Shown: piece by piece, positions 11,335 to 24,305 of the stretch
Layout of the letters: each line of letters starts with the position of its first letter
Numbering within the stretch: position 1 is the stretch's first letter
Origin: an uncultured Candidatus Saccharibacteria bacterium
Lineage (GTDB): Bacteria > Patescibacteriota > Minisyncoccia > Phycocordibacterales > UBA9973
DNA: 28,639 nucleotides
Direction of reading: 5' to 3'
NCBI GenBank assembly: GCA_964462355.1
Contig: CAYWZM010000001.1
Coordinates: 1 to 28,639 of the forward strand
Made by a program: the position numbers and the translations under genes
Notes under the pieces: generated by a model
Told to the model about the DNA's origin: nothing
The model's input: only the letters and a program-made list of their open reading frames with translations
Databases searched by the model: none

Positions 11335-11431
11335 CAAAGTACGTCCGTACCGAAACGGGCGTTCTTTATTACAAAAATCCTTATTTTATAAAGCTTTTTT
11401 GGAAATAATGACAATTTAATACTAATAATAA

Positions 11432-11502
11432 GTGAAAAGTTATAAGGGTATAGGGAACTAGGAAAGTTAAAATCCACTCGCTATCCGCTTATCTCTTTTC
11501 AC
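11432..11502 (+). promoter_or_regulatory. Long imperfect hairpin in the nusA leader
   Basis: GTGAAAAG/CTTTTCAC, ATAAG/CTTAT, GG/CC and ATAG/CTAT: 19 Watson-Crick pairs ending 12 nt before the ATG. Confidence 0.5.
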
Positions 11503-11514
11503 CAATAACTAGCT

Positions 11515-12738
11515 ATGTTAGACCTAAAAGTTATGAAATCAGCCCTCCTTCAACTTGAAGAAGAGCGAAAAATACCGAAAGAAAAGATAATTGATGCCAT
11601 CGAGCAAGCACTTGCTGCTGCATATAAAAAAGATTACGGAAAGAAAGGACAAATTGTTCGAGCCCATTTTGATATTGAAACAGGAGAAACTTCGTTTTTA
11701 CAGGTAAAAATCGTAGTCGATGAGTCGACCGCACGAATGATAAACCCAGAAGAAGAAGGTGAAGCCGTAGATCTCGGTGATACCGAAGACATTATTGAAG
11801 GTGACGACCGGGTGCGATTTAATCCAGAGCACCATATTCTTCTCGAAGATGCAAAACTTATCAAAAGTGATGCAAAACTAGGAGATGAGATTATTTTCCC
11901 ACTTGAAACACAAGAAAATTACGGGCGAATCGCTGCACAAACTGCAAAACAAGTAATCATACAGCGTATTCGTGAAGCTGAACGTGGATCTATTATTGAT
12001 GAATACGGAAACAAAGAAGGAGAAATCATCAATGGTGTGATTCAAAAAATAGAACGAGGAACTATTTTCGTTGATTTCAATCGAGCAACAGGTATTCTTC
12101 CACACGATGAGCAAATTCCTGGAGAGCGATACAACCGAGGAGACAGAATCAAAGCATATTTGTACCTTGTTGAAGAAACACCTCGAGGGGTAAACTTGAA
12201 ACTTTCACGTTCACACCCACGATTTCTCGGAGAACTTTTCAAGGTAGAAGCTCCAGAAGTCGCAAGTGGTGTAGTGGAAATCAAGTCAATCGCTCGTGAG
12301 GCTGGTTCACGTTCAAAGATTGCCGTTCACTCAAATGACGAACATGTTGACCCTGTAGGATCATGCGTAGGTCAAAAAGGTGTTCGCGTGACTACTATTA
12401 TGTCTGAACTCAATGGAGAAAAGGTAGATATTATCCCTTGGTCAGCAGACCCAAAAGAATTTGTTGCAAAATCTCTTTCACCTGCAAAAGTTCTCTCTAT
12501 AGATGTAAACGAAGAAGAGCACAAGGCTATGATTGAGGTTGCAGAAGATCAGCTTTCACTTGCAATTGGAAAAGGTGGGCAAAATGTTCGACTTGCAGCG
12601 AAACTTACTGGTTGGAGAATCGACATTAAAGGCATAAAAGGCGATGATGTTGTTGAATCAGGTGATGATGAAGGATATGCATCACTTTCAACACTCAAAG
12701 AAGTTGCTGAAGAAATTTCAGACGAAGATACAAATTAA
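11515..12738 (+). CDS. nusA: Transcription termination/antitermination factor NusA
   Basis: RIAAQTAKQVIIQRIREAER, S1 domain, AREAGSRSKIAV, DPVGSCVGQKGVRV, AIGKGGQNVRLAAKLTGWRIDI. Confidence 0.98.
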   Translation: MLDLKVMKSALLQLEEERKIPKEKIIDAIEQALAAAYKKDYGKKGQIVRAHFDIETGETSFLQVKIVVDESTARMINPEEEGEAVDLGDTEDIIEGDDRVRFNPEHHILLEDAKLIKSDAKLGDEIIFPLETQENYGRIAAQTAKQVIIQRIREAERGSIIDEYGNKEGEIINGVIQKIERGTIFVDFNRATGILPHDEQIPGERYNRGDRIKAYLYLVEETPRGVNLKLSRSHPRFLGELFKVEAPEVASGVVEIKSIAREAGSRSKIAVHSNDEHVDPVGSCVGQKGVRVTTIMSELNGEKVDIIPWSADPKEFVAKSLSPAKVLSIDVNEEEHKAMIEVAEDQLSLAIGKGGQNVRLAAKLTGWRIDIKGIKGDDVVESGDDEGYASLSTLKEVAEEISDEDTN

Positions 12739-12780
12739 ATCAAAAAACGCACATAATAATGTGCGTTTTTTGATTTAATT
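12733..12780. terminator. nusA terminator (22-bp perfect arms)
   Basis: AATTAAATCAAAAAACGCACAT-AATA-ATGTGCGTTTTTTGATTTAATT; includes the nusA stop codon. Confidence 0.88.
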
Positions 12781-12803
12781 ATCCACACATTTACATGAGA
12801 AGA

Positions 12804-12823
12804 CACTCAGTGAGTGATACTAT
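12804..12823 (+). promoter_or_regulatory. Extended -10 promoter with overlapping palindrome
   Basis: CACTCA-G-TGAGTG (12804-12816) overlapping TGA-TACTAT (12815-12823), upstream of the surface-protein operon. Confidence 0.4.
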
Positions 12824-12852
12824 AAAGTAGTACTCTAATAATTACATTTACT

Positions 12853-13152
12853 ATGGAACAAAATCCACTCACTCAATCACACGTGCCTCACACTGATAAG
12901 AAGAAAGTGTATATTTCAATTATCATTATCCTTGTTCTTATCCTTGGAACAATTTTTGTACTTCGACAGTTTGGTGATTACAAAATCAAAAAGCAAAAAG
13001 AACAAATGGTACAACAACTCAAAGACGGCAAGGAGCCAACCATCAAAGAAAAACTCGACATTTCTGAAATAATAATCGAAAATACGACTACTAGTGCAGA
13101 AGAAGTGAATAATAAAAAACAAGATCTTATAAATAAAATAAAAAACCAGTAG
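12853..13152 (+). CDS. Small single-pass membrane protein, 99 aa
   Basis: KKK followed by TM VYISIIIILVLILGTIFVL and a charged helical tail; 4-nt gap to the next gene. Confidence 0.7.
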   Translation: MEQNPLTQSHVPHTDKKKVYISIIIILVLILGTIFVLRQFGDYKIKKQKEQMVQQLKDGKEPTIKEKLDISEIIIENTTTSAEEVNNKKQDLINKIKNQ

Positions 13153-13156
13153 CGCT

Positions 13157-15601
13157 ATGGGAAAAAAGATACAAAAAATAATACCTGCACTTGTAATGTT
13201 TTTTGCCGGAATTGTGGGTGTCGGTGTCACGTATGCTCAATCTGGAACAGTTGAGCTCGAAGGATATGCATGGAGTGATGGAATTGGTTGGATAAGTCTC
13301 AATTGTAAAACAGGAAGCCCTACTGCATCTGATATTTGTGGTATTTCTAACTACAAAGTCACCGTAGGAACAGGCGGAGCACTTAGTGGGTATGGATGGA
13401 GTGATAACCTTGGGTGGATAAAATTTGGCGGACTTTCTGGTTTTCCTTCAGGAGGAACAAATGCAACATATGATTCTGTTACAGGAAAAATCTCTGGTTT
13501 TGCAAGATTTTGCTCTGGATTAAATGGATCAAATTATTTTTCTATAAATAATTCATGTAGTGGTTCAGCAAGAACAGACGGATGGGATGGGTGGCTTTCT
13601 CTTTCTGGCACAACACCAAACTATGGAGTAACTGTTGCATCAAATGGTCTTTTTTCTGGTTTTGCATGGGGAGATAGTGTTGTGGGATGGGTTGATTTCT
13701 CAGCAGTAAAACTTTCAACTTCTATTGTCGCACCATCTGAAACAGTGTTTCTGGATGTCGGTACAGTCCCACCCGGATCACCAGTAGGAACACCTGTTTC
13801 ATATGTACCCGCACTCCTTACTTCGGTTCCTAGTCCAATTGGTCAACCTTTCACTCTTGAAATTGCGACAACACAAAAACTTTATTACAAATGGAACACA
13901 AGTAGTGCAACTTCATGTGCATTTTCTGGTGCAAGCAATGGCCCAGTCCCCGCAATCTATTTAGTGACTGGTTCAAGTGGGGTAGGTCTCAGTCTTCCTG
14001 TCGGTCAACATTATCTTGCACTGACTTGTACAATGACCAGTGGAGCTACAATTGTCAGAGTTGGAACTATTAATGTTCTCGATATTGGTGTATGGCTTTA
14101 CCAGAATCCAAATATTACCACTACGTCAGATAAAGCTGCACTTAGTTATTACACAGTTGGAGTTACCCCTGGATCTTGTGACGCATATTCTCTTGATGCA
14201 TCAAATTATGGGCTTGCGTCAACATGGCCAAATAATGAACTTGGTCCGTTTGGGACTGGACCTGGGCTTCAGTCAAGTCTTCCCGTTTCGGTCAAGAACC
14301 TTGTTGGTACTTCAGTTCCACCAAATACATCTGACTGGAACCCTGCAAAAACACTTACAACAATCAGTGGTGGGCAATATTCAGGATATGGAATAATTAC
14401 ACGTGAGTCATCGCAGGCACGATATTATGTCGAGTGTCTAAACCCCCTCAACGGAAAAGTTGTTCACGCATCTGTAGATGTTGGACCACTCGAAGTAATA
14501 CCCATGACTCTTCGCGCTCTGAAATCAGGAGTTGTGGTGACTCAAGTAAACCAAGGTGATAATGTTGATCTTGAGTATGCGCCACAAAGCATGGGGTATA
14601 CATTTTCTTCATGTCAAGGTAAAGCTACAGATATTACAGGGGGAGGAAGTACTCCGCTTTCAATTTCAAATTGGAATGGGCCTATAGTCCCTTCATTTAC
14701 ACCTCAAAGTGTCACAGTTCCTTCTTATGTAAATGGTGTATCAACTGCCATTGCGTCAGGTGATGTGGAGTATGAAGTAAGTTGTGTTACTCCATGGGGT
14801 GCTCTCGCAAGTGCTACAACAATCGTTCGAGTGAACGCGACTGGAAATCTTGTGTTGTCAGCATCACCTTCATCATTCTTGGAGAATACAAGCGGTCTAA
14901 AAACAACGCTCTCATGGTCACACCCAAATACATCACTGTTTGGTCTTAATGCATGTCTTCCAGGTGATGGTACACCAGGGTCAACTGGACTTAAATTGAA
15001 CGGTGTATGGAAGCCAGCATCAAACTGGTCAGGACTACCAAAACTTGGAAGTCCAAACGATTCACAGCCTAACGTAGAGGTCAAAAGTGCATCGGTGGGT
15101 ACAATTGCAGAGTATTCAATTATCTGTAAAGACATAAATGGAGTCGATCATGTTGCTCGTGCCAATATCACGTACACTCGTCCACCTCAAGATCCATTAC
15201 AGCAAGCAATTATTGCTCAGTGTTTACCAGACGATGTAAATGCCACAGAGTTTGAAGTATCATGGATTTCTACTCCTTCATCAAACACTGGATGTTACCA
15301 AGTTGTTTCTCCTTCAAATACATCAATACCCTGGACACCTGGTCCGCATGGCGATGGGCTTCCTCCAACCCCTGGTTCTCCATACAATCCAACAGGACTA
15401 CTTAATCAATATGCAGTAAATTCAGGATCATTCACACTTCCATACACTACTATTCAACCTCAAGGATATACCGTGACAATGCAATGTTATGATGAAGATG
15501 AAAATCCGATTCCTGGCACAGTGTCAACCACAATATATCCTGATTGTCGGGTCGAAACAGGATCATCTGGACCTAGAAAGCCACGATTTGAGGAGTTTTA
15601 A
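13157..15601 (+). CDS. Large secreted surface protein, 814 aa: N-terminal GYAWS/GW repeat domain plus about five Cys-containing Ig-like repeats
   Basis: Signal peptide; repeats GYAWSDGIGWISL, GYGWSDNLGWIKF, GFAWGDSVVGWVDF; recurring (L/F)xWxS...C...YxxxC units; S/T/G/P-rich. Confidence 0.8.
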   Translation: MGKKIQKIIPALVMFFAGIVGVGVTYAQSGTVELEGYAWSDGIGWISLNCKTGSPTASDICGISNYKVTVGTGGALSGYGWSDNLGWIKFGGLSGFPSGGTNATYDSVTGKISGFARFCSGLNGSNYFSINNSCSGSARTDGWDGWLSLSGTTPNYGVTVASNGLFSGFAWGDSVVGWVDFSAVKLSTSIVAPSETVFLDVGTVPPGSPVGTPVSYVPALLTSVPSPIGQPFTLEIATTQKLYYKWNTSSATSCAFSGASNGPVPAIYLVTGSSGVGLSLPVGQHYLALTCTMTSGATIVRVGTINVLDIGVWLYQNPNITTTSDKAALSYYTVGVTPGSCDAYSLDASNYGLASTWPNNELGPFGTGPGLQSSLPVSVKNLVGTSVPPNTSDWNPAKTLTTISGGQYSGYGIITRESSQARYYVECLNPLNGKVVHASVDVGPLEVIPMTLRALKSGVVVTQVNQGDNVDLEYAPQSMGYTFSSCQGKATDITGGGSTPLSISNWNGPIVPSFTPQSVTVPSYVNGVSTAIASGDVEYEVSCVTPWGALASATTIVRVNATGNLVLSASPSSFLENTSGLKTTLSWSHPNTSLFGLNACLPGDGTPGSTGLKLNGVWKPASNWSGLPKLGSPNDSQPNVEVKSASVGTIAEYSIICKDINGVDHVARANITYTRPPQDPLQQAIIAQCLPDDVNATEFEVSWISTPSSNTGCYQVVSPSNTSIPWTPGPHGDGLPPTPGSPYNPTGLLNQYAVNSGSFTLPYTTIQPQGYTVTMQCYDEDENPIPGTVSTTIYPDCRVETGSSGPRKPRFEEF

Positions 15602-15617
15602 AATCAATTAGTCTACT

Positions 15618-15971
15618 ATGAAAACAGATATCTATTCACAAATAAAAACATTGGTAGTAGTGACAGTAATCGGAGTGGGTGTGATGGTTGTGTCTCCTGT
15701 TTTTGGTTGGAACCCCCCAACAACAACACCAACAGGAAATAATGCATTACCTCCTTTGCTCTCAGATTCATCACCTCAAGCAAAAGGAGGAGCAGGAATG
15801 GGATCGTTTCTCTATGATGTACAAGGATTATTACTCTCAAATGATTTAGTTGTTGCAGGGACATCAGTATTCGGAGGAAAATTTACAAATACACTTATTG
15901 GTGACAGTTCTCGAACCACTCCAGTACCTGTATGTGTTGCAAGTAGTGGTAATCTCGTAATTTGTCCTTAA
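15618..15971 (+). CDS. Secreted protein consisting only of a W-x-P/NN/PQxKGG base module, 117 aa
   Basis: Signal peptide; aligns without gaps to residues 1-114 of the next gene; ends CVASSGNLVICP. Confidence 0.75.
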   Translation: MKTDIYSQIKTLVVVTVIGVGVMVVSPVFGWNPPTTTPTGNNALPPLLSDSSPQAKGGAGMGSFLYDVQGLLLSNDLVVAGTSVFGGKFTNTLIGDSSRTTPVPVCVASSGNLVICP

Positions 15972-15996
15972 AAGTTTATTTAATTATTAAAAGTAT

Positions 15997-17178
15997 ATGA
16001 TGAACACATTTTCAAAAAGTTTAAAAATACTCGCACTGTGTCTGGTCATTGGTTTTGGTGCACAGATTGCATTCTCTGCATGGGGTGGAGCGCCAGGTAA
16101 TCCCCCTTCAAACAATAAAGCAGCTCCGATTAACGTGACTTCAACTCCACAAGGAAAAGGTGGAACACCGACATCAGGATCACTCCTTGATATTCATGGA
16201 CTTCTTGCTGCAAATCAACTTGGAGTTGCAGGAGATTCTATCTTTGGTGACCAAGTAATGGTTCTCCCACTCTCTGATACTACAAGAACAACACCTGAAC
16301 AAATTTGTGCCGATTCTAATGGAACACTTGTACTTTGCGGAACTTCTGGTCCAACAGGAAATACTCAAATATATACCATGCAAGGCACTTCACAGTATAC
16401 TTCTGGTCCGTGTACTATTTGTATGGCAAATACTTTTTATGTTGATCCTTCACTTGCAGGAAAAACATTTACAGTAAAAGTATGGGGTGCAGGAGGTGGT
16501 GGAGGTGCTGGTTCTGTTCACACAAGTGCGAGTGCTATCTCTCGTGATGGTGCCAAAGGTGGAGATTCAACTCTTACTAAAGTTGGTCAAGTTGTTGCTT
16601 CTGCAGTAGGCGGAGAAGGTGGTAAGGGGGGTCGCAAGGTTTGCTCGACTCCATCAATTTGTGCCTCATCGCTTGTAAACACTGGTGGTGTTGGAGGATT
16701 GACCTCTGGAACACAAACTGGACAAGATGGAGATGATGGTTCCGGAATGCTTGCTTCATCAAACCCAAAAATTGGTGGTGCAGGAGGTGGTGGAGGTGCT
16801 GGTGAGTATAAAACATATACACTTAATCTGACAGCGGGAGCAACATATGTAGTTACTCTAGGTGTAGGTGGTAGTGGGGGTACACCTTCAGAAGGAGATT
16901 CAACATTTAATGGAATTTCAGATGTTTGTGGAGGTGGTGGTGGTAATGGAAGTCAGACTACACTTAAGGATTTCTTGATAAAAACAGCATACGCTACAGG
17001 TGTTGCAGCAAATGGAGGACTTGGAGGTGTTCCATCGTCAGCTTCTGGAACATACGGAAAAGGTGGTGACGGAGGAAGTGCGGATAACTGCGGCTCGGAT
17101 ACTTCACTAGCATCAGGGGCAAAAGCAAATTCGGGAAATGGAGGATTTGGTGGACGAATGGAAATTTCATGGAACTAA
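15997..17178 (+). CDS. Secreted protein with the same base module plus a glycine-rich domain, 393 aa
   Basis: Signal peptide, base module to Cys114, then VKVWGAGGGGGAG..., YVVTLGVGGSGG, GDSTF and C-terminal GRMEISWN, typical of glycine-rich surface/fibre domains. Confidence 0.8.
   Translation: MMNTFSKSLKILALCLVIGFGAQIAFSAWGGAPGNPPSNNKAAPINVTSTPQGKGGTPTSGSLLDIHGLLAANQLGVAGDSIFGDQVMVLPLSDTTRTTPEQICADSNGTLVLCGTSGPTGNTQIYTMQGTSQYTSGPCTICMANTFYVDPSLAGKTFTVKVWGAGGGGGAGSVHTSASAISRDGAKGGDSTLTKVGQVVASAVGGEGGKGGRKVCSTPSICASSLVNTGGVGGLTSGTQTGQDGDDGSGMLASSNPKIGGAGGGGGAGEYKTYTLNLTAGATYVVTLGVGGSGGTPSEGDSTFNGISDVCGGGGGNGSQTTLKDFLIKTAYATGVAANGGLGGVPSSASGTYGKGGDGGSADNCGSDTSLASGAKANSGNGGFGGRMEISWN
16486..16803 (+). 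repeat. Two identical 27-nt copies (16486-16512 and 16777-16803) encoding GAGGGGGAG
   Basis: GGTGCAGGAGGTGGTGGAGGTGCTGGT twice, 291 nt apart, in frame. Confidence 0.85.
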
Positions 17179-17180
17179 TC

Positions 17181-17216
17181 ATAAAAACTCACAGCATGTA
17201 TGCTGTGAGTTTTTAT
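17181..17216. terminator. Terminator of the surface-protein operon (16-bp arms)
   Basis: ATAAAAACTCACAGCA-TGTA-TGCTGTGAGTTTTTAT. Confidence 0.85.
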
Positions 17217-17252
17217 ATTGCTGATATACTAATGATAAGTAATTCAATTTTT

Positions 17253-19004
17253 ATGCGCAATCAAGATACTCAACTTAAAAAATTTATTCTAGAAGCTGGT
17301 TTGGCATCAAAGGCAGATATTGTTGAAGCTGAAAGGCGTATTGAGGACACAAACGAAACAATAGGCAATGCGCTTCTTTCTTTAGGGAAAATAAAAGAAG
17401 AAGATCTTCGTCGAACCGAAGCATATGTACTTGGTATTCCTTTTGTAAGTCTTCAAGGAGAAAAAATTGATTTTTCAATTTTGTCATTGATTCCTGAGCC
17501 AATCGCACGAACTCACAATGTAATCGCGTATCAAAAAACAAAAGAAGGATTGGAAGTAGCAATGCTTGATATTGACGATCTTTCTGTGATTGATTCAGTA
17601 AAAAAGAAAGTAGGGTTGAAAATTCTCCCGCGACTTACTGATCAAGAATCTATTAAATCAGCACTTCTTCAGTATAAGAAAACACTCAAGGCAGAATTTG
17701 ACGATATCATCAAGAAAGAATCTGCATCACTTAAAACAATATCAGAAGCAGATGGGGAGAATGTCACAGAAAAAGATTTGAAAGAAATGGCAGAAGATTT
17801 GCCTGTTGTGAAAATTGTCGACACGCTCATTTCTCATGCCATCATCCAAAACACCTCCGATATTCATATCGAACCAGGAGAACACGAACTCATTGTGCGT
17901 TATCGTATTGATGGACTTCTTCGTGATGCCATGGTACTCCCAAAAGATGCAGCTGCAGGAATTATTGCTCGTATCAAAGTACTTTCTAATTTAAAACTTG
18001 ATGAAAAGCGAATTCCTCAAGACGGAAGATTCAAAATTGAAAATGATGGAGAAAAAGTATCATTTCGTGTCTCAACACTCCCAACATACTACGGAGAAAA
18101 AACTGTTATCCGTATTTTGAAAGAAAATTCAAAGGGATTCACACTTGAGGCACTTGGATTTCATGGAGAATCACTCGACAGAATTCATGATGGCATGAAG
18201 CAACGCACTGGAATGGTGCTTGCTGCGGGGCCGACTGGATCTGGAAAATCTACAACGCTCTATACGATTCTAGACATTTTGAATACTCCAGATGTGAATA
18301 TTTCTACAGTCGAAGATCCTATCGAATACCAAATGCCTCGAATCAACCAGACACAAGTCAAACCAGAAATTGGTATGACATTTGCAAACGGACTACGCGC
18401 GCTTCTCCGACAAGACCCTGATATTGTAATGGTGGGGGAAATTCGTGATGGAGAAACTGCATCTTTGGCCGTGAATGCTGCTCTTACTGGACACTTAGTG
18501 CTTTCAACTATTCATACAAACTCTGCAGCAGGTGCAGTGCCCCGAATGATTGATATGGGTGTTGAGCCATTCCTGATTGTGTCGACGGTAAAAGTTGTGA
18601 TCGCACAACGTCTCGTACGACGACTTACTAACGCAAAAGAGAAGTATATTTTGTCAGAAGGGGAACCCAAAGCATTGAGTAATATTGTTGATCTTGATCG
18701 AATGCTTTCATTGCTTAAACTTGAAAAAGCTGTAGGTGAGAAAGATGATTGGAGTACTATTTCATTTTATAGACCTAAGAAAAGTGAAGAAAGCGAAGAT
18801 GGATACAAGGGGCGAGTGGGAATCCATGAAGCCCTCAAGATGAGTCCTGCAATTAAGGAATTGGTATTAAAGGGTGCATCTGCCGATGATATTGAAGCAC
18901 AGGCAAAAAAAGAAGGCATGATGACAATGATTGAAGACGGAATATATCAAGCGGTGATGGGATTTACTACAACAGAAGAAGTGTTGCGTGTGGTAAGTGA
19001 ATAG
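17253..19004 (+). CDS. pilB: Type IV pilus assembly ATPase (PilB/GspE family)
   Basis: N-terminal MshEN/GSPII-like region, SDIHIEP, RIPQDGRF, Walker A GPTGSGKST, TVEDPIEY, LRQDPDIVMVGEIRD, LSTIHTNSA. Likely start ATG 17253 behind TGA-TATACT (17222-17230). Confidence 0.93.
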   Translation: MRNQDTQLKKFILEAGLASKADIVEAERRIEDTNETIGNALLSLGKIKEEDLRRTEAYVLGIPFVSLQGEKIDFSILSLIPEPIARTHNVIAYQKTKEGLEVAMLDIDDLSVIDSVKKKVGLKILPRLTDQESIKSALLQYKKTLKAEFDDIIKKESASLKTISEADGENVTEKDLKEMAEDLPVVKIVDTLISHAIIQNTSDIHIEPGEHELIVRYRIDGLLRDAMVLPKDAAAGIIARIKVLSNLKLDEKRIPQDGRFKIENDGEKVSFRVSTLPTYYGEKTVIRILKENSKGFTLEALGFHGESLDRIHDGMKQRTGMVLAAGPTGSGKSTTLYTILDILNTPDVNISTVEDPIEYQMPRINQTQVKPEIGMTFANGLRALLRQDPDIVMVGEIRDGETASLAVNAALTGHLVLSTIHTNSAAGAVPRMIDMGVEPFLIVSTVKVVIAQRLVRRLTNAKEKYILSEGEPKALSNIVDLDRMLSLLKLEKAVGEKDDWSTISFYRPKKSEESEDGYKGRVGIHEALKMSPAIKELVLKGASADDIEAQAKKEGMMTMIEDGIYQAVMGFTTTEEVLRVVSE

Positions 19005-19006
19005 TG

Positions 19007-19042
19007 AAAATAAAAAACTCTTTAAAAAGAGTTTTTTATTTT
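19007..19042. terminator. AT-rich inverted repeat/terminator after pilB
   Basis: AAAATAAAAAACTCTTT-AA-AAAGAGTTTTTTATTTT, 17-nt arms. Confidence 0.7.
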
Positions 19043-19061
19043 ATAAACGAGCAAAAAAAAA

Positions 19062-19081
19062 TTTTTATCGTATAATATATT
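19062..19081 (+). promoter_or_regulatory. pilC promoter motif, copy 1
   Basis: TTTTTATCG-TATAAT-ATATT; 19/20 identical to 22776-22795. Confidence 0.6.
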
Positions 19082-19111
19082 TATACCCTATTTTAGTGTG
19101 TTTTAACTCTA

Positions 19112-20329
19112 ATGAAATTTCAATACAAAATTCAAACAAAAGAAGGACAAATTCAAGAAGGTGTTATTGAAGCACCAGATAAATTTGCTGTTACAAAACA
19201 ATTTAGAGAGCAAGGAATTGTTCCGATTATGGTTATTGAAAAAAAGGGAGCACTTGAAATTAATATTCCTTTTGTGAGCGCGTTGTTTGGTAAAATTAAA
19301 CTCTCAGAAAAAATTATTTTTACACGAAATCTTTCAGGAATGATTTCAGCAGGACTTCCTCTTTCTCGTGCACTTCAAGTTCTTCATAAGCAGACAAAAA
19401 ATAAAAAATTTCAGAGTGTCATTGATGATCTCATGAAAAATATTGACAAGGGAGGCACACTTTCAGATGGAATGGCAAAGTATCCAAAAGTATTCTCAAC
19501 ACTTTTTATTTCAATGGTTCGAGCAGGTGAAGAATCAGGAAAGCTCGCTCCTTCACTTACTGAGATAGGTGCAAACCTCGAGAAGAGCTACAATCTGACG
19601 CGAAAGGTAAAAGGTGCTATGACGTATCCTTCTGTTATTGTCTCAGCGATGTTTTTGATTGGAATTTTGATGATGATTTACGTGGTGCCAACACTCACTG
19701 GAACATTCAAGGAGCTCAATATTGAGTTACCGGCATCGACAAGACTTGTTATTTGGATAAGTGATACTCTTTCATCTTCACCATTGTTGGTGTTTGCATC
19801 ATTGATTGTATTTGTGTTTTTACTTAGAGCGTTTGTCCGCGCAGAACGAACACAACCATTTATTGATATTGTCATTTTGAAAATTCCTGTAGTTGGAAAC
19901 ATTATCAAGGAAATGAATTCTGCTCGAACCGCACGAACGCTTTCGTCACTGCTTGCCTCTGGTGTAGATGTCACGCGTGCACTACAAATTACAAAAGATG
20001 TTGTTCAGAATGTTCATTATAAACGCTTGATACAAAAAGCAGTCGATGCTGTCCAGAAGGGTGTTCCTATCTCGTCAATCTTTAAAGAACGGACAGATCT
20101 CTACCCGGTTATGGTTGGTGAAATGATGGAGGTTGGAGAAGAAACAGGAAAGTTTGGTGATATGCTTCTGGATATTGCGACCTTTTATGAATCTGAAGTT
20201 GAAGCAAAGACCAAAGATCTTTCAACTATTATCGAACCAGTACTTATGATACTTATTGGAGGAGCGGTAGGATTTTTTGCGGTATCGATGATTACCCCAA
20301 TGTATTCATTGATGGATAGCATAGGATAA
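19112..20329 (+). CDS. pilC: Type IV pilus inner-membrane platform protein (PilC/GspF)
   Basis: FTRNLSGMISAGLPL, MVRAGEESGKL, KVKGAMTYP, VGEETG, IEPVLMILIGGAVGFFAVSMITPMY. Confidence 0.95.
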   Translation: MKFQYKIQTKEGQIQEGVIEAPDKFAVTKQFREQGIVPIMVIEKKGALEINIPFVSALFGKIKLSEKIIFTRNLSGMISAGLPLSRALQVLHKQTKNKKFQSVIDDLMKNIDKGGTLSDGMAKYPKVFSTLFISMVRAGEESGKLAPSLTEIGANLEKSYNLTRKVKGAMTYPSVIVSAMFLIGILMMIYVVPTLTGTFKELNIELPASTRLVIWISDTLSSSPLLVFASLIVFVFLLRAFVRAERTQPFIDIVILKIPVVGNIIKEMNSARTARTLSSLLASGVDVTRALQITKDVVQNVHYKRLIQKAVDAVQKGVPISSIFKERTDLYPVMVGEMMEVGEETGKFGDMLLDIATFYESEVEAKTKDLSTIIEPVLMILIGGAVGFFAVSMITPMYSLMDSIG

Positions 20330-20334
20330 ACACG

Positions 20335-22143
20335 ATGTACAATTATTTTTATACAAAACGATACACAAAAGGGACAACTCTCGTCGAGACACTAGTTGCT
20401 GTAGCTTTTTTTGTGGGAGTATCAATGGCACTCTACGGAGTGTATCAAAAAGTCACTACACTTTTGTCTATTATCAAAGTCAAAACTGTTGCAACAAATA
20501 TTGCAAACGAACAACTAGAAATTATTCGAAATCTTTCTTATTCATCAGTTGGTACAAGTGGCGGTATCCCCTCAGGAACACTTCCTCAGACACAAACTGT
20601 TACTCGTGATGGCATTTCGTTTACTGTGGGAATAACAATTCGAAACGTTGATCAAACTTATGACGGAACTTTGGGTGGTAATCCAAATGATACTTCGCCT
20701 GCAGATAATAAATTTGTTGACATAGAAGTTTCGTGTACAGAATGTAAGTACACAAGTCCAATATCTCTTTCAACCTTGGTTGCCCCAAAAAACCTGGAGC
20801 TCACATCAAATAATGGCGCACTTTTTGTTCAAGTATTTGATGCAAATGGACAACCTGTTTCAGAAGCTGATGTGACCGTGGTCAACAGTTCTGTGTCTCC
20901 TGCTGTTAATCTTACAGACGAAACAAGTGTGGATGGAATACTTCGAATTATCGATGTACCTCCTTCATCTGCATACAGTGTGAGTGCTACAAAAAATGGA
21001 TATTCAACTTCACGTACGTACACAACCACCGAACTTTCGGGGTCAACACCTATTACACCTCAAGCTTTTGTTGCATCACAAACTATAACTCAAATCTCGC
21101 TTGCAATTGATAGATTGAGCACACTTTCGGTTGATAGTGTTACATCAACATGTACACCCGTATCTGGTTTTGATTTTTCTCTTAAAGGTACAAAAAAGAT
21201 TGGTACAAATCCTGATGTAATTAAATATAATCAAAATCATGCAACAAACAGCTCAGGTTCGCTTTCACTTTCTACTCTTGAGTGGGATACGTACAACATT
21301 ACACCTATTGATTCAAATTATGATCTTATTGGCTCAAACCCGCTTTTGCAATTCGATGTATTACCAAACTCTTCTCAATCAATACAATTTATTGTTGCAC
21401 CTCGAGCACCCAAAACACTAATGGTTACAGTAAAGGATTCTTCGACAGGGCTTCCAATTTCTGGTGCTTCAGTAGAACTCGATGATCAGCAAAGTTCTTT
21501 TGAAAGTACAAAAACCACTGGCCAAGGCTTCTTTTCTCAGACAGATTGGTCGGGTGGAAGTGGTCAAGCAAACTTTACAGATTCGACACATTATTTTGGA
21601 GATAATAATTTCGTGAATACTACAACAGTTCCTGGTACGCTGTCGTTGGTGAATTCAGGTGGGACATATACGTCAAATGGAATTCTTGAGTCATCTACAT
21701 TTGATACCGGATCTACTTCAACAAATTACAATGAGATTTTGTGGTTACCACAAGATCAACCGATCGCAACCGGGAGCGAAAGTGTTAAGTTTCAGATTGC
21801 ATCAAACAATGACAATGCAACATGGAATTTTACAGGACCAGATGGAACAGGTGCATCGTATTATACAGCTGCGAATAAAACTCTCGGTACTCATCATAGT
21901 GGTAATCGATATATTCGTTATAAAATATTTTTAAGCACAGAGTCTTCTAGTACTACTCCATCTGTGTCTGATGTGAGTCTCACGTATTCCTCGTCGTGTA
22001 CACCGCCTGGACAAGTGTCGTTTCAAAATTTAGATTCAAGTACGTATTCACTTACAGTGTCAAAATCAGGATATAATGATTCAAGTACTCTTGTGAATAT
22101 TTCCTCTGATTGGCAACAATCAAACGTAACACTAAACCCTTAA
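20335..22143 (+). CDS. Giant PilV-like minor pilin with carboxypeptidase-regulatory-like domains, 602 aa
   Basis: Class III signal KG|TTLVETLVAV (Glu5), ATNIANEQLEIIRNLSY, then repeated VQV.D..G.PVS.A.V...YSV.A.K.GY modules. Confidence 0.85.
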   Translation: MYNYFYTKRYTKGTTLVETLVAVAFFVGVSMALYGVYQKVTTLLSIIKVKTVATNIANEQLEIIRNLSYSSVGTSGGIPSGTLPQTQTVTRDGISFTVGITIRNVDQTYDGTLGGNPNDTSPADNKFVDIEVSCTECKYTSPISLSTLVAPKNLELTSNNGALFVQVFDANGQPVSEADVTVVNSSVSPAVNLTDETSVDGILRIIDVPPSSAYSVSATKNGYSTSRTYTTTELSGSTPITPQAFVASQTITQISLAIDRLSTLSVDSVTSTCTPVSGFDFSLKGTKKIGTNPDVIKYNQNHATNSSGSLSLSTLEWDTYNITPIDSNYDLIGSNPLLQFDVLPNSSQSIQFIVAPRAPKTLMVTVKDSSTGLPISGASVELDDQQSSFESTKTTGQGFFSQTDWSGGSGQANFTDSTHYFGDNNFVNTTTVPGTLSLVNSGGTYTSNGILESSTFDTGSTSTNYNEILWLPQDQPIATGSESVKFQIASNNDNATWNFTGPDGTGASYYTAANKTLGTHHSGNRYIRYKIFLSTESSSTTPSVSDVSLTYSSSCTPPGQVSFQNLDSSTYSLTVSKSGYNDSSTLVNISSDWQQSNVTLNP

Positions 22144-22757
22144 TGAAATCATCACCAACTACAATTCGCGGTTTTTCTCTTGCTGAAACAATTGTGACAG
22201 TAGCTATTGTTGCGGTAATTGGAATTGGTGCGGGCAAATTTAGTGGGGATGTGTTTTCTTTCAATCGCTATTTTTCAAAGTCATTAAATGTAGCAAGTGA
22301 CGCACGAAAAGTCCTTCGCCCTATGGTGAATGAAATACGCAGTGCATCTCTCTCGTCACTTGGCGGGTATCCTATTGAAGTTGCTGGAACAAACGAATTT
22401 GTATTTTTTACTGATACTGATGACAACGGAGTTAAGGAAAGAGTCCGCTATTACCTAAGCGGAACTACTCTTAAAAAGGGAATAACTGTTCCGACTGGGA
22501 ATCCGTATGTATACAATACCGCAAACGAAACCTCATATGATTTGATTCAATATGTCCGAAATGGATCAACTCCGATATTTACATATTATGATTCAAATTA
22601 TAACGGTTCGACATCGGCTCTTACATCACCAGTTTCTGTCACGAGTGTGCGATTGGTGCGGATTGAAGTTATCATTGATGAAAAAGTAAATATTCCACCT
22701 GCGCCGCTTTCGATTGTGACACAAGTCTCGTTCCGTAACTTAAAAGACAACTTATAA
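22143..22757 (+). CDS. PilW/PulJ-like minor pilin, about 204 aa
   Basis: Class III signal RG|FSLAETIVTV (Glu5), MVNEIRSAS, C-terminal TQVSFRNL. ATG overlaps the upstream TAA (TAATG). Confidence 0.85.
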   Translation: MKSSPTTIRGFSLAETIVTVAIVAVIGIGAGKFSGDVFSFNRYFSKSLNVASDARKVLRPMVNEIRSASLSSLGGYPIEVAGTNEFVFFTDTDDNGVKERVRYYLSGTTLKKGITVPTGNPYVYNTANETSYDLIQYVRNGSTPIFTYYDSNYNGSTSALTSPVSVTSVRLVRIEVIIDEKVNIPPAPLSIVTQVSFRNLKDNL

Positions 22758-22775
22758 TGTGCACATTTTTTTGAT

Positions 22776-22795
22776 TTTTTATCGTACAATATATT
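22776..22795 (+). promoter_or_regulatory. pilX-like gene promoter motif, copy 2 (leaderless geometry)
   Basis: TTTTTATCG-TACAAT-ATATT; the -10 box ends 6 nt before ATG 22797. Confidence 0.6.
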
Positions 22796-22796
22796 C

Positions 22797-24305
22797 ATGG
22801 TGCGCATTTTAGAAAAAACAACAAAAAAAGTTCGTGGCGCAATGCTTATTGGTGTTGTAGTTTTTTCTTCAATTGCAATTGCGCTTGTTGCTGGATTTGT
22901 GGGATGGACGCAGTCTACAATGGCACTATCTCGACATACTATTTATCGTGAACAGGCATTTCAAATTGCTGAAGCTGGAATTGATTATTATCGATGGCAT
23001 CTTGCACACAACAAAAATGATTTTAAAGATGGAACAAACAGCAATGGTCCGTACACACATGAATTCAAAGATGAAAATGGAAATGTTATAGGTCATTTTA
23101 TTCTCACAATTACTCCTCCTGTTACTGGATCTACTGTGGTCACTATACGATCAGAAGGAACAGTTGTCGCAGATCCATCAGCATCTCGAATTATTCAAAC
23201 CAAACTTGCCATTCCTTCGTTTGCAAAATGGGCAGTGGTTGCAAATGATACGATGCGATTTGGAGAGGGTACTGAAACATTTGGCCCGATTCATTCAAAT
23301 GGAGGAATTCGATTTGATGGATTGGCCCACAATTTAGTTACAAGTACTGTATCTAGTTATGATGATCCAGACCATGATGAGCCTGGTGCAGATAAATTAG
23401 AATTTGGAGTACACACGCACGTGAAGCCGCCACCTCAAACTGGTTCGTATGTCCAATATGTTGCCGCAGAGACACCACCTGCAACTCCTCAGGCTCGAAC
23501 AGATGTGTTTATGGCAGGAAGACAATTTCCTGTTGCGTCGGCAGATTTTAATGGTATTACTTCAAGTCTTTCTCAGATTAAAACAAGTGCTCAATCAAGT
23601 GGAAGATATTTTGCTGCATCGGGATATCAAGGTTATCGAATAGTGTTAAAAACAAATGACACTTTTGATCTGTATCGTGTTACAAATCTTTCAACTGTAA
23701 CAAATGGATGTAGTCAGAATTCAAGCGGAGAAGATGAATGGGGGACATGGAGTATTAGATCAAACAATGGGCAAGTACTCCTTGGAAATTATGCATTTCC
23801 TTCAAATGGTTTAATTTTTGTTGAGGATAATTTGTGGATTGACGGAACTATCAATACCGCACGTCTTACAATCGCAGCAGGAAGATTTCCCGACAATGCA
23901 AACACACGAAAAAGTATCACCATAAATAATGATTTAAAGTATACAAACTATAATGGAACTGATGTCATTTCACTTATTGCCCAAAAGAATATCAATGTAG
24001 GATTTGTCTCCGAAGACGATCTTCAGATAGATGCTGCACTTGTAGCTCAAAATGGACGAGTAGGGAGATATTATTACTCCTCGGCGTGTAGCACCTACTA
24101 TACACGTTCTATCTTGAGACTGTATGGAATGATTGCTTCAAACCAACGATATGGTTTTGCCTTCGCAAACTCTGGTGGACAGCATGTAAGTGGATATGAA
24201 GACCGTGTGATTACTTATGATGCAAATCTCCTTTATGCGCCACCTCCATCATTTCCTCTCACTTCAGACTCATACAGTACGATTTCATGGGAGGAAATTG
24301 AGTAA
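22797..24305 (+). CDS. PilX-like minor pilin with large C-terminal beta domain, 502 aa
   Basis: RG|AMLIGVVVF with no Glu5, EQAFQIAEAGIDY PilX N-terminal motif, HSNGGIRF, C-terminal TYDANLLYAPPPSFP...WEE. Confidence 0.85.
   Translation: MVRILEKTTKKVRGAMLIGVVVFSSIAIALVAGFVGWTQSTMALSRHTIYREQAFQIAEAGIDYYRWHLAHNKNDFKDGTNSNGPYTHEFKDENGNVIGHFILTITPPVTGSTVVTIRSEGTVVADPSASRIIQTKLAIPSFAKWAVVANDTMRFGEGTETFGPIHSNGGIRFDGLAHNLVTSTVSSYDDPDHDEPGADKLEFGVHTHVKPPPQTGSYVQYVAAETPPATPQARTDVFMAGRQFPVASADFNGITSSLSQIKTSAQSSGRYFAASGYQGYRIVLKTNDTFDLYRVTNLSTVTNGCSQNSSGEDEWGTWSIRSNNGQVLLGNYAFPSNGLIFVEDNLWIDGTINTARLTIAAGRFPDNANTRKSITINNDLKYTNYNGTDVISLIAQKNINVGFVSEDDLQIDAALVAQNGRVGRYYYSSACSTYYTRSILRLYGMIASNQRYGFAFANSGGQHVSGYEDRVITYDANLLYAPPPSFPLTSDSYSTISWEEIE

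Follow-up and report, generated by a model that had tools for sequence, protein, structure and literature searches.

Bacteria of the CPR (Patescibacteria) account for a large part of bacterial diversity, and they live attached to other microbes. The type IV pili of Saccharibacteria aside, we know of no molecule with which they choose or hold their hosts. The stretch of DNA analyzed herein (28,639 nucleotides, referred to below as the window) contains two tandem genes, A and B, whose products share an N-terminal module. In B, the module is followed by a C-terminal domain, hereafter called its payload; in A, it is followed by a single residue. What might such a module do, and why should it occur in a copy that carries nothing? 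An earlier note, made from the sequence alone, suggested that the module serves in assembly or export, and that the empty copy could be a spacer, a cap or a co-subunit. The evidence assembled here favors, with a probability of about 55%, the view that A and B belong to a so far undescribed family of exported surface proteins of the Minisyncoccia (CPR/Patescibacteria), in which the shared unit provides a cell-proximal docking or assembly base for exchangeable outer tips.

The module of A and B and its family

The two genes and their parts are as follows.

15618-15971, + strand: gene A, a module-only protein of 117 aa, with a signal peptide at residues 1-30 (15618-15707) and the module from W31 to C116 (15708-15965), then Pro and the stop codon
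15933-15965, + strand: C-x9-C hairpin that closes the module of A; C106 and C116 are kept in at least 90% of 67 modules, and the model places strands at residues 105-107 and 113-115
15997-16338, + strand: start of gene B, which encodes a protein of 393 aa (15997-17178), with a signal peptide at residues 1-28 and the module from W29 to C114 (16081-16338)

Protein A and residues 1-114 of B are identical at 43 of 116 positions (BLASTP, E 2e-20, covering residues 1-116 of A), which bears out the proposal that the tandem genes have a base module in common. Between the first Trp and the last Cys, the two align ungapped at offset 2 with 35 identical columns, precisely the 35/86 that had been counted in the earlier note. 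That note regarded the whole alignment as free of gaps, and this holds from the Trp onward; in the Pro-rich head, BLASTP introduces a single gap of 2 residues. The motifs quoted for the module are present in both proteins, as is the leader pattern K-x-L-x4-VIG-x-G, and the short gene does stop one residue past the last Cys, this residue being a Pro. A and B are the only copies of the module in the 679-kb, 96.7%-complete genome. As had been suspected, no named domain lies on the module: Pfam and NCBIfam (E<=0.1), PHROGs and a PDB sequence profile all returned no match, so that it did not turn out to be a characterized domain with another name. No description of it was found in the literature.

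A word-indexed protein search was too insensitive for this family, and B as the sole query retrieved no related loci from genome contigs. An exhaustive profile search was run over 1.84 billion representatives, with a threshold of E<=1e-3. The catalogue that resulted, of a kind that the earlier note had recommended, comprises 86 proteins (14 of them at E<=1e-10) with diverse C-terminal partners, and 24 of the 86 are module-only proteins of no more than 150 aa. In nearly all members, the match begins at residue ~25-30, directly after a hydrophobic leader at the N-terminus. The three repeat proteins P0031, P0050 and P0073 match a central stretch only and were rejected as members.

An alignment of 67 full modules (A3) gave the consensus. 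The head, which follows the leader, reads W-x2-P-x3-PP-x-NN-x3-PIN-x5-Q-x-KGG; the neck reads GSLLDI-x-G-x-LS-x3-L-x-V-x-G-x-A, then VC-x-D-x2-G-x-L-x2-C. Q54 is invariant, and K56 and G70 are kept, like both Cys residues of the hairpin, in at least 90% of the modules. The leader has a pattern of its own, K-I-I-x-L-G/A-x3-S/G-x-G-x2-Y-x2-A followed by Trp, with K10 in 58/67 and L14 in 52/67 sequences, small residues at positions 15, 19 and 21, and Y24 and A27 before the Trp; judging from this pattern, cleavage probably occurs at A|W. When all open reading frames of the genome were searched with an HMM of the leader alone, A and B were the only hits (E 2e-9 and 3e-9; next best 0.07). The leader thus belongs to the conserved unit and is not a generic signal peptide.

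The reach of the family is uneven. In a sample of 400 genomes from the phylum, 20 genomes had matches, and most of these covered only the leader and the head (model positions 1 to ~60-90). The full module with its hairpin is concentrated in the family and order of the window organism (20 of 60 relatives). The head is therefore the older part of the unit and the neck the younger. Named relatives assign the organism itself to the class Minisyncoccia, and its DNA recurs in wastewater and activated-sludge metagenomes.

An AF2 model of the module, built with a 67-row alignment (pLDDT 80, pTM 0.39), consists of a leader helix (residues 2-29), an extended chain and two small hairpins (54-56/66-68 and 105-107/113-115). 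Searches with this model found no fold match above noise in the PDB (Foldseek, VIA wide), the AFDB clusters or BFVD. An extended model of this kind would fit a piece that folds on its partners; given the empty fold searches, it could also be an under-determined prediction. Tail-fibre names in the BFVD list were not taken as evidence since the matches are non-significant, and an AF2 fold of B computed from its sequence alone was of no use (pLDDT 34).

Payload replacement at the hairpin boundary

The domains fused to the module are of many kinds. Among the 86 proteins, the partners include Flg_new_2 Ig-like repeats (12), Gly_rich_2 (7), DUF4215 (6), fn3 (5) and Peptidase_S74 (4), as well as CARDB, FG-GAP, SH3_3 and Hint. 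Most of them start a few residues past the hairpin. In one protein, P0075, the head alone is combined with an S74 chaperone and a region that resembles phage tail fibres. The unit itself is constant, and everything behind the hairpin, be it glycine-rich, Ig-like, Cys-rich or of the tail-fibre/S74 type, is exchangeable or absent. Together with the replacement described below, these partners strongly support the idea, already put forward in the earlier note, of a constant module with variable C-terminal fusions.

16339-17178, + strand: payload of B, a short linker and a glycine-rich, Gly_rich_2-like domain, with the best stretch at 16774-17154
16332-17183, + strand: exchanged segment, which runs in B from residue 112 through the stop codon and lies between blastn blocks that end at 16331 and restart at 17184

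PF21722 (Gly_rich_2) is a glycine-rich domain that occurs in bacterial surface proteins and in proteins resembling phage tail fibres; it is related to the glycine-rich domain of ALK/LTK (PF12810). The payload of B resembles it in having a beta-strand followed by VWGAGGGGG and then repeated G-rich turns, and an Atlas feature search led to Gly_rich_2 as well. Its score against PF21722 is 13.9 bits (E 0.055), or 10.8 bits in a six-frame search, and lies below the cut-off of 24.3 bits, which is passed by P0003, the sister-strain allele of B (29.5 bits), and by the family member P0029 (46.7 bits). The payload of B is therefore best named Gly_rich_2-like. This likeness concerns the payload of B alone and not the shared module.

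A sister-strain locus from another metagenome (L043) shares ten genes with the window, in unchanged order. At the DNA level, it is 94.4% identical to the window over 11340-16331 and 96.2% over 17184-23171, and blastn found no match to it over 16332-17183. The proteins that flank this segment are 94.6-99.5% identical to those of the window. Within B, residues 1-101 are 100% identical in the two strains despite ~13 synonymous differences, and all non-synonymous changes lie past codon 101; the payloads share ~33% protein identity. The break point falls 2-3 codons before the last Cys, whose coordinate is the very end that the earlier note had assigned to the module in B. Five more protein pairs behave in the same way, with modules 85-98% identical and payloads 34-43%. 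The hairpin boundary is thus a recombination joint.

The glycine-rich payloads could not be aligned by pairwise BLASTP, but could be by phmmer. In the latter, the payload of B matched those of P0006 (6e-30), P0012 from the same genus (5e-24) and P0004 (4e-17), and its own sister-strain allele, P0003, at just 0.011. The payload of P0003 groups instead with P0021, P0011 and P0027. Moreover, the modules of P0011 and P0012 are 81% identical, and their payloads are of opposite types. It follows from this grouping and mismatch that at least two glycine-rich payload types have been shuffled against the phylogeny of the module.

A diversity-generating retroelement was rejected as the source of the difference since the entire domain differs. 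Neither silent payload cassettes nor a second GW gene were found elsewhere in the genome. In contigs of four wastewater metagenomes, no alternative junction was seen at 16331, all of them carrying the window's own allele, a weak result because contigs hide rare variants. The absence of cassettes and of alternative junctions makes the exchange look like allele replacement between strains rather than switching on site.

Gene neighborhood and the bare copy

The module genes lie in a block with the following neighbors.

12853-13152, + strand: small single-pass membrane protein of 99 aa, with whose gene the block begins; relatives have a homolog, or a gene in the equivalent position, before the GW gene
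13157-15601, + strand: secreted Trp-rich GW-repeat protein of 814 aa, with a Cys-containing Ig-like region and a conserved C-terminal tail, ...KPRFEEF
17169-19004, + strand: PilB/GspE-type assembly ATPase (PF00437, E 1.7e-123); its start probably lies a few codons in, the sister-strain call being 12 residues shorter
19112-20329, + strand: PilC/GspF platform protein (PF00482, E 2.9e-56)
20335-24305, + strand: three pilin-like genes (602, 215 and 502 aa) with prepilin leaders; the first two have canonical G|(T/F)xLxE N-termini

Across 20 related genomes, nusA is followed by the small membrane protein, the GW protein and one to three module genes, and then by either pilB-pilC with pilin-like genes or, directly, tpiA-pgk. 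The module genes are tightly linked to those of the GW-repeat protein and the small membrane protein, and usually to pilB-pilC. The GW gene abuts them in 18/20 of the related loci, and pilB follows them in about half; at the scale of the phylum, ~8/20 loci have a GW-type gene no more than a few kb away. In the window, the successive gaps between the genes for the membrane protein, the GW protein, A and B are 4, 16 and 25 nt, no terminator-like site was found on the + strand inside the block, and a strong hairpin lies 3' of nusA. The block appears to be a single transcription unit.

This arrangement raises the possibility that the module is recognized by the type IV pilus machine, and that the protein either rides on a minor-pilin tip, as PilY1 does, or is pushed out by a pseudopilus in a manner resembling type II secretion. 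The position of the module genes directly 5' of pilB-pilC and of three prepilin-type genes in the window, repeated in ~10/20 relatives, and the apparent cotranscription are what would be expected if this were so. However, the leaders of A and B are of the Sec type; they match neither TIGR02532 nor PF07963, end at A|W and have no Glu at +5. The GW protein, too, has no prepilin leader, nor does it have the leader of the module family (leader HMM, E 11). Signals for type II secretion are, besides, normally not linear N-terminal modules. In roughly half of the loci, moreover, tpiA/pgk directly adjoins the module genes and pilB-pilC is not in the vicinity, and the GW gene is still adjacent. A link to the pilus is therefore not obligatory, and we consider a pilus-dependent cargo or tip complex rather unlikely, though it deserves more weight than the other rivals of a docking base discussed below.

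Alternatively, the 90-residue module might by itself bind the wall or the S-layer, the short protein being its basic form and the long ones fusions, with no complex with the GW protein at all. Module-only forms are indeed frequent (24/86), one related genome (G023) contains two module-only genes and no payload-bearing one, and some loci at the phylum level encode head-motif proteins and have no GW gene nearby. Against this stand the very tight adjacency of the GW gene (18/20 loci), a predicted chain that is extended and seems to have little self-contained fold, and the company that the short gene keeps. In all nine loci in which this could be assessed (G000, G006, G018, G023, G028, G034, L045, L068 and L070), it adjoins another module gene and is never the sole one, while a lone long gene is found in 10/20 loci. 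An envelope binder that stands alone is accordingly an improbable account of the family.

What, then, is the bare copy? The nearest relative of A is P0005, a protein of 113 aa that is 46% identical to it over the full length. Its gene is preceded by the end of a GW-protein ortholog that also has the ...KPRFEEF tail, and is followed by the start of P0004, which is long like B and orthologous to it. On a tree of modules, A and P0005 are sister to the group of B, P0003 and P0004 (SH-aLRT 87). Thus, A arose by tandem duplication within this lineage and has been kept through divergence down to 46% identity; its payload was either lost or never present. The next branches are single long genes of two same-genus genomes that have no short gene. 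That these two genomes manage with one long gene speaks against a docking base. The earlier note had asked whether the short gene might be a recent truncated duplicate that is absent from relatives. Recent it is not, in view of the 46% identical ortholog that another species has in a matching GW-short-long arrangement and of module-only genes in several lineages; its absence is confirmed for the two same-genus genomes searched.

A retains all near-invariant residues of the family, and it is 97.4% identical to its counterpart in the sister strain, with five synonymous and three non-synonymous changes (pN/pS 0.21, on the small number of eight changes). Fourteen of the 24 module-only proteins end 0-1 residue past the last Cys, and one Pro is often all that follows it. 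Short forms are scattered over the tree (at least three changes are forced, and parsimony counts 18), frequently with a long relative or a tandem partner beside them (for instance G006, G023, P0061/P0077 and P0010/P0017). Since G023 has no long gene, the bare copy is not merely the partner of a tipped one. Most simply, it would be a co-subunit or an adaptor that acts through the same interface as its payload-bearing paralog.

A more elaborate proposal, and a doubtful one in our judgment, is that the module is the subunit of a novel CPR surface appendage. Bare module proteins would self-assemble on the GW-repeat protein, forming a short shaft or a ring through contacts of the head and perhaps of Q-x-K or the Cys hairpin, and payload-bearing paralogs would be built in as interchangeable tips. 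Such an assembly would involve neither pilins nor sortases and would have its own dedicated signal peptide. Least of all do we believe that the short gene is a by-product, left by deletion of a payload at the hot boundary and drifting to loss with no role of its own: the recombination joint, the scatter of short forms beside long relatives and the lack of a short gene in two same-genus genomes could be so explained, but A and P0005, with the same ending and the same neighbors, testify to a copy that survived a long divergence, the near-invariant residues are all in place, synonymous change per site exceeds non-synonymous change, and 14/24 short proteins extend no more than one residue past the hairpin.

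A proposed docking base with exchangeable tips and its known counterparts

Taken together, the constant unit of leader and module, the variable payload, the recombination joint and the linkage to the GW protein and the membrane protein fit a docking base with fast-changing tips. With such a base, the module protein would be exported by Sec, and the module would fix it to a complex of the co-encoded GW protein and the membrane tether beside the pilus machine. The C-terminal domain would then point outward as a ligand-binding tip, diversified by allele replacement. Bare A would use the same docking or oligomerization surface as a co-subunit, whether as an adaptor or as a tip-less chain in a mixed assembly, which would set the number or spacing of tips.

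The family provides a concrete candidate for host attachment in the CPR that can be recognized from sequence, with a constant base, a diagnostic leader and a fixed address beside pilus genes. An outer domain that is replaced wholesale between strains ~95% identical elsewhere is the pattern expected of a determinant of host range or immune evasion. A profile of the module may allow the tips to be catalogued across CPR genomes and tip types to be linked to hosts, and the recurrent paralog with no payload may offer a simple handle on how the apparatus is built.

Several known systems share parts of this design. The PilY1/PilC tip adhesins of type IVa pili are, like the module proteins, Sec-exported non-pilins encoded with minor pilins and assembly genes, and both are presumed to be adhesive. 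However, searches of Pfam and NCBIfam showed no similarity between the two, and the module proteins are much smaller and persist where pilB-pilC is not adjacent. In chaperone-usher pili (FimF/FimG versus FimH) and in the modular type IV pilins PilB/PilC of Streptococcus sanguinis, one assembly module occurs either bare or, in the tip subunit, fused to a binding domain. By analogy, the same bare-versus-tipped logic may apply to A and B, although the module lacks both the pilin fold and the leader of prepilins, its payload is C-terminal, and the block encodes no usher, chaperone or sortase.

The closest described system is that of the mosaic adhesive trimer (MAT) fibres of Bdellovibrio bacteriovorus, the resemblance being a functional analogy. 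All 21 MATs have a conserved N-terminal domain after the signal peptide; it has no structural homologue, is thought to sit at the predator surface and was proposed to bind a surface element there, and the tips, some with S74 and some lacking it, are exchangeable (Caulton et al. 2024, PMC10769870). The two differ in several respects. The N-terminal domain of MATs has ~130 residues and the module ~88, and PDB profile and fold searches with the module were empty. The shaft of MATs is an intertwined trimeric beta-helix/prism; most payloads of the module family come straight after the module, a long beta-helical shaft being absent, and in B, too, no shaft separates the two. Many payloads here are of the monomer-type Ig-like kind, so that a model of trimeric fibres does not fit the family as a whole. 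Paralogs lacking a payload and obligatory GW neighbors are not described for MATs. Nonetheless, the layout is the same in both systems, with a conserved N-terminal domain right behind a Sec signal peptide, the C-terminal tips are highly variable, a subset of them carries Peptidase_S74 (4/86 in the present family), and several paralogs occur per genome. In both, moreover, the producers attach to other bacteria, and an interplay with type IV pili is suspected.

Block edges and gene order

The following features concern the upstream edge of the surface-protein block and the start of pilB.

12733-12780: hairpin of 20 pairs, A/T-rich around its GC core, located directly after nusA and scored as a minus-strand terminator
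17169-17260: the pilB start region, where the longest pilB open reading frame overlaps the stop codon of gene B by 10 nucleotides

The hairpin is the upstream edge of the block. As for pilB, which codes for a PilB/GspE-type ATPase, the gene call in the sister strain is 12 residues shorter than the longest frame of the window, and the protein of relatives starts at MRNQDTQLKKF. Translation of pilB thus probably begins near 17250, in which case B and pilB are separated by a short gap.

A metagenomic locus, L070 (656-5671), begins with three module genes (379, 115 and 121 amino acids), followed by an opposite-strand lipoprotein-like gene and then by the small membrane protein, the GW protein and pilB. 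Thus, module genes can be located upstream of the tether/GW pair.

Divergence and tail of the GW protein

Comparison of the two strains gives 94.6% amino acid identity for the GW protein (13157-15601), with a pS of 0.21 and a pN/pS of 0.14; this protein is clearly more diverged than its neighbours, which share 97-99.5% identity with a pS of 0.06-0.12. The GW protein may also be subject to diversifying pressure or recombination.

15560-15601: the C-terminal tail of the GW protein, compared with the GW C-termini of the related loci L023-L042 and L070

A short conserved tail (hydrophobic-x-Glu-hydrophobic) closes the GW-repeat proteins at or near their last residues, with variants including KPRFEEF, PPVFEEF, KPKFEEF, PTWIEF and LFIEF. 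This conservation spans many genera, and the tail possibly acts as a docking strand or sorting signal.

Payload assembly and separability of the module

The single long module gene of a same-genus genome (L023, G001:C2, 9215-9950) contains a run of N, marking an assembly gap, that interrupts its glycine-rich payload, and contigs from several metagenomes end within the window's payload too, at 16500-16640 and 16870-17080. Evidently, the payload assembles poorly.

In P0075, a metagenomic family protein of 603 amino acids, the module is reduced to its leader and Pro-rich head, which are fused to a shaft resembling that of phage tail fibres and to a Peptidase_S74 chaperone; the head is thus separable from the neck with its hairpin. 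Among family members, P0075 is the one most like MAT fibres.
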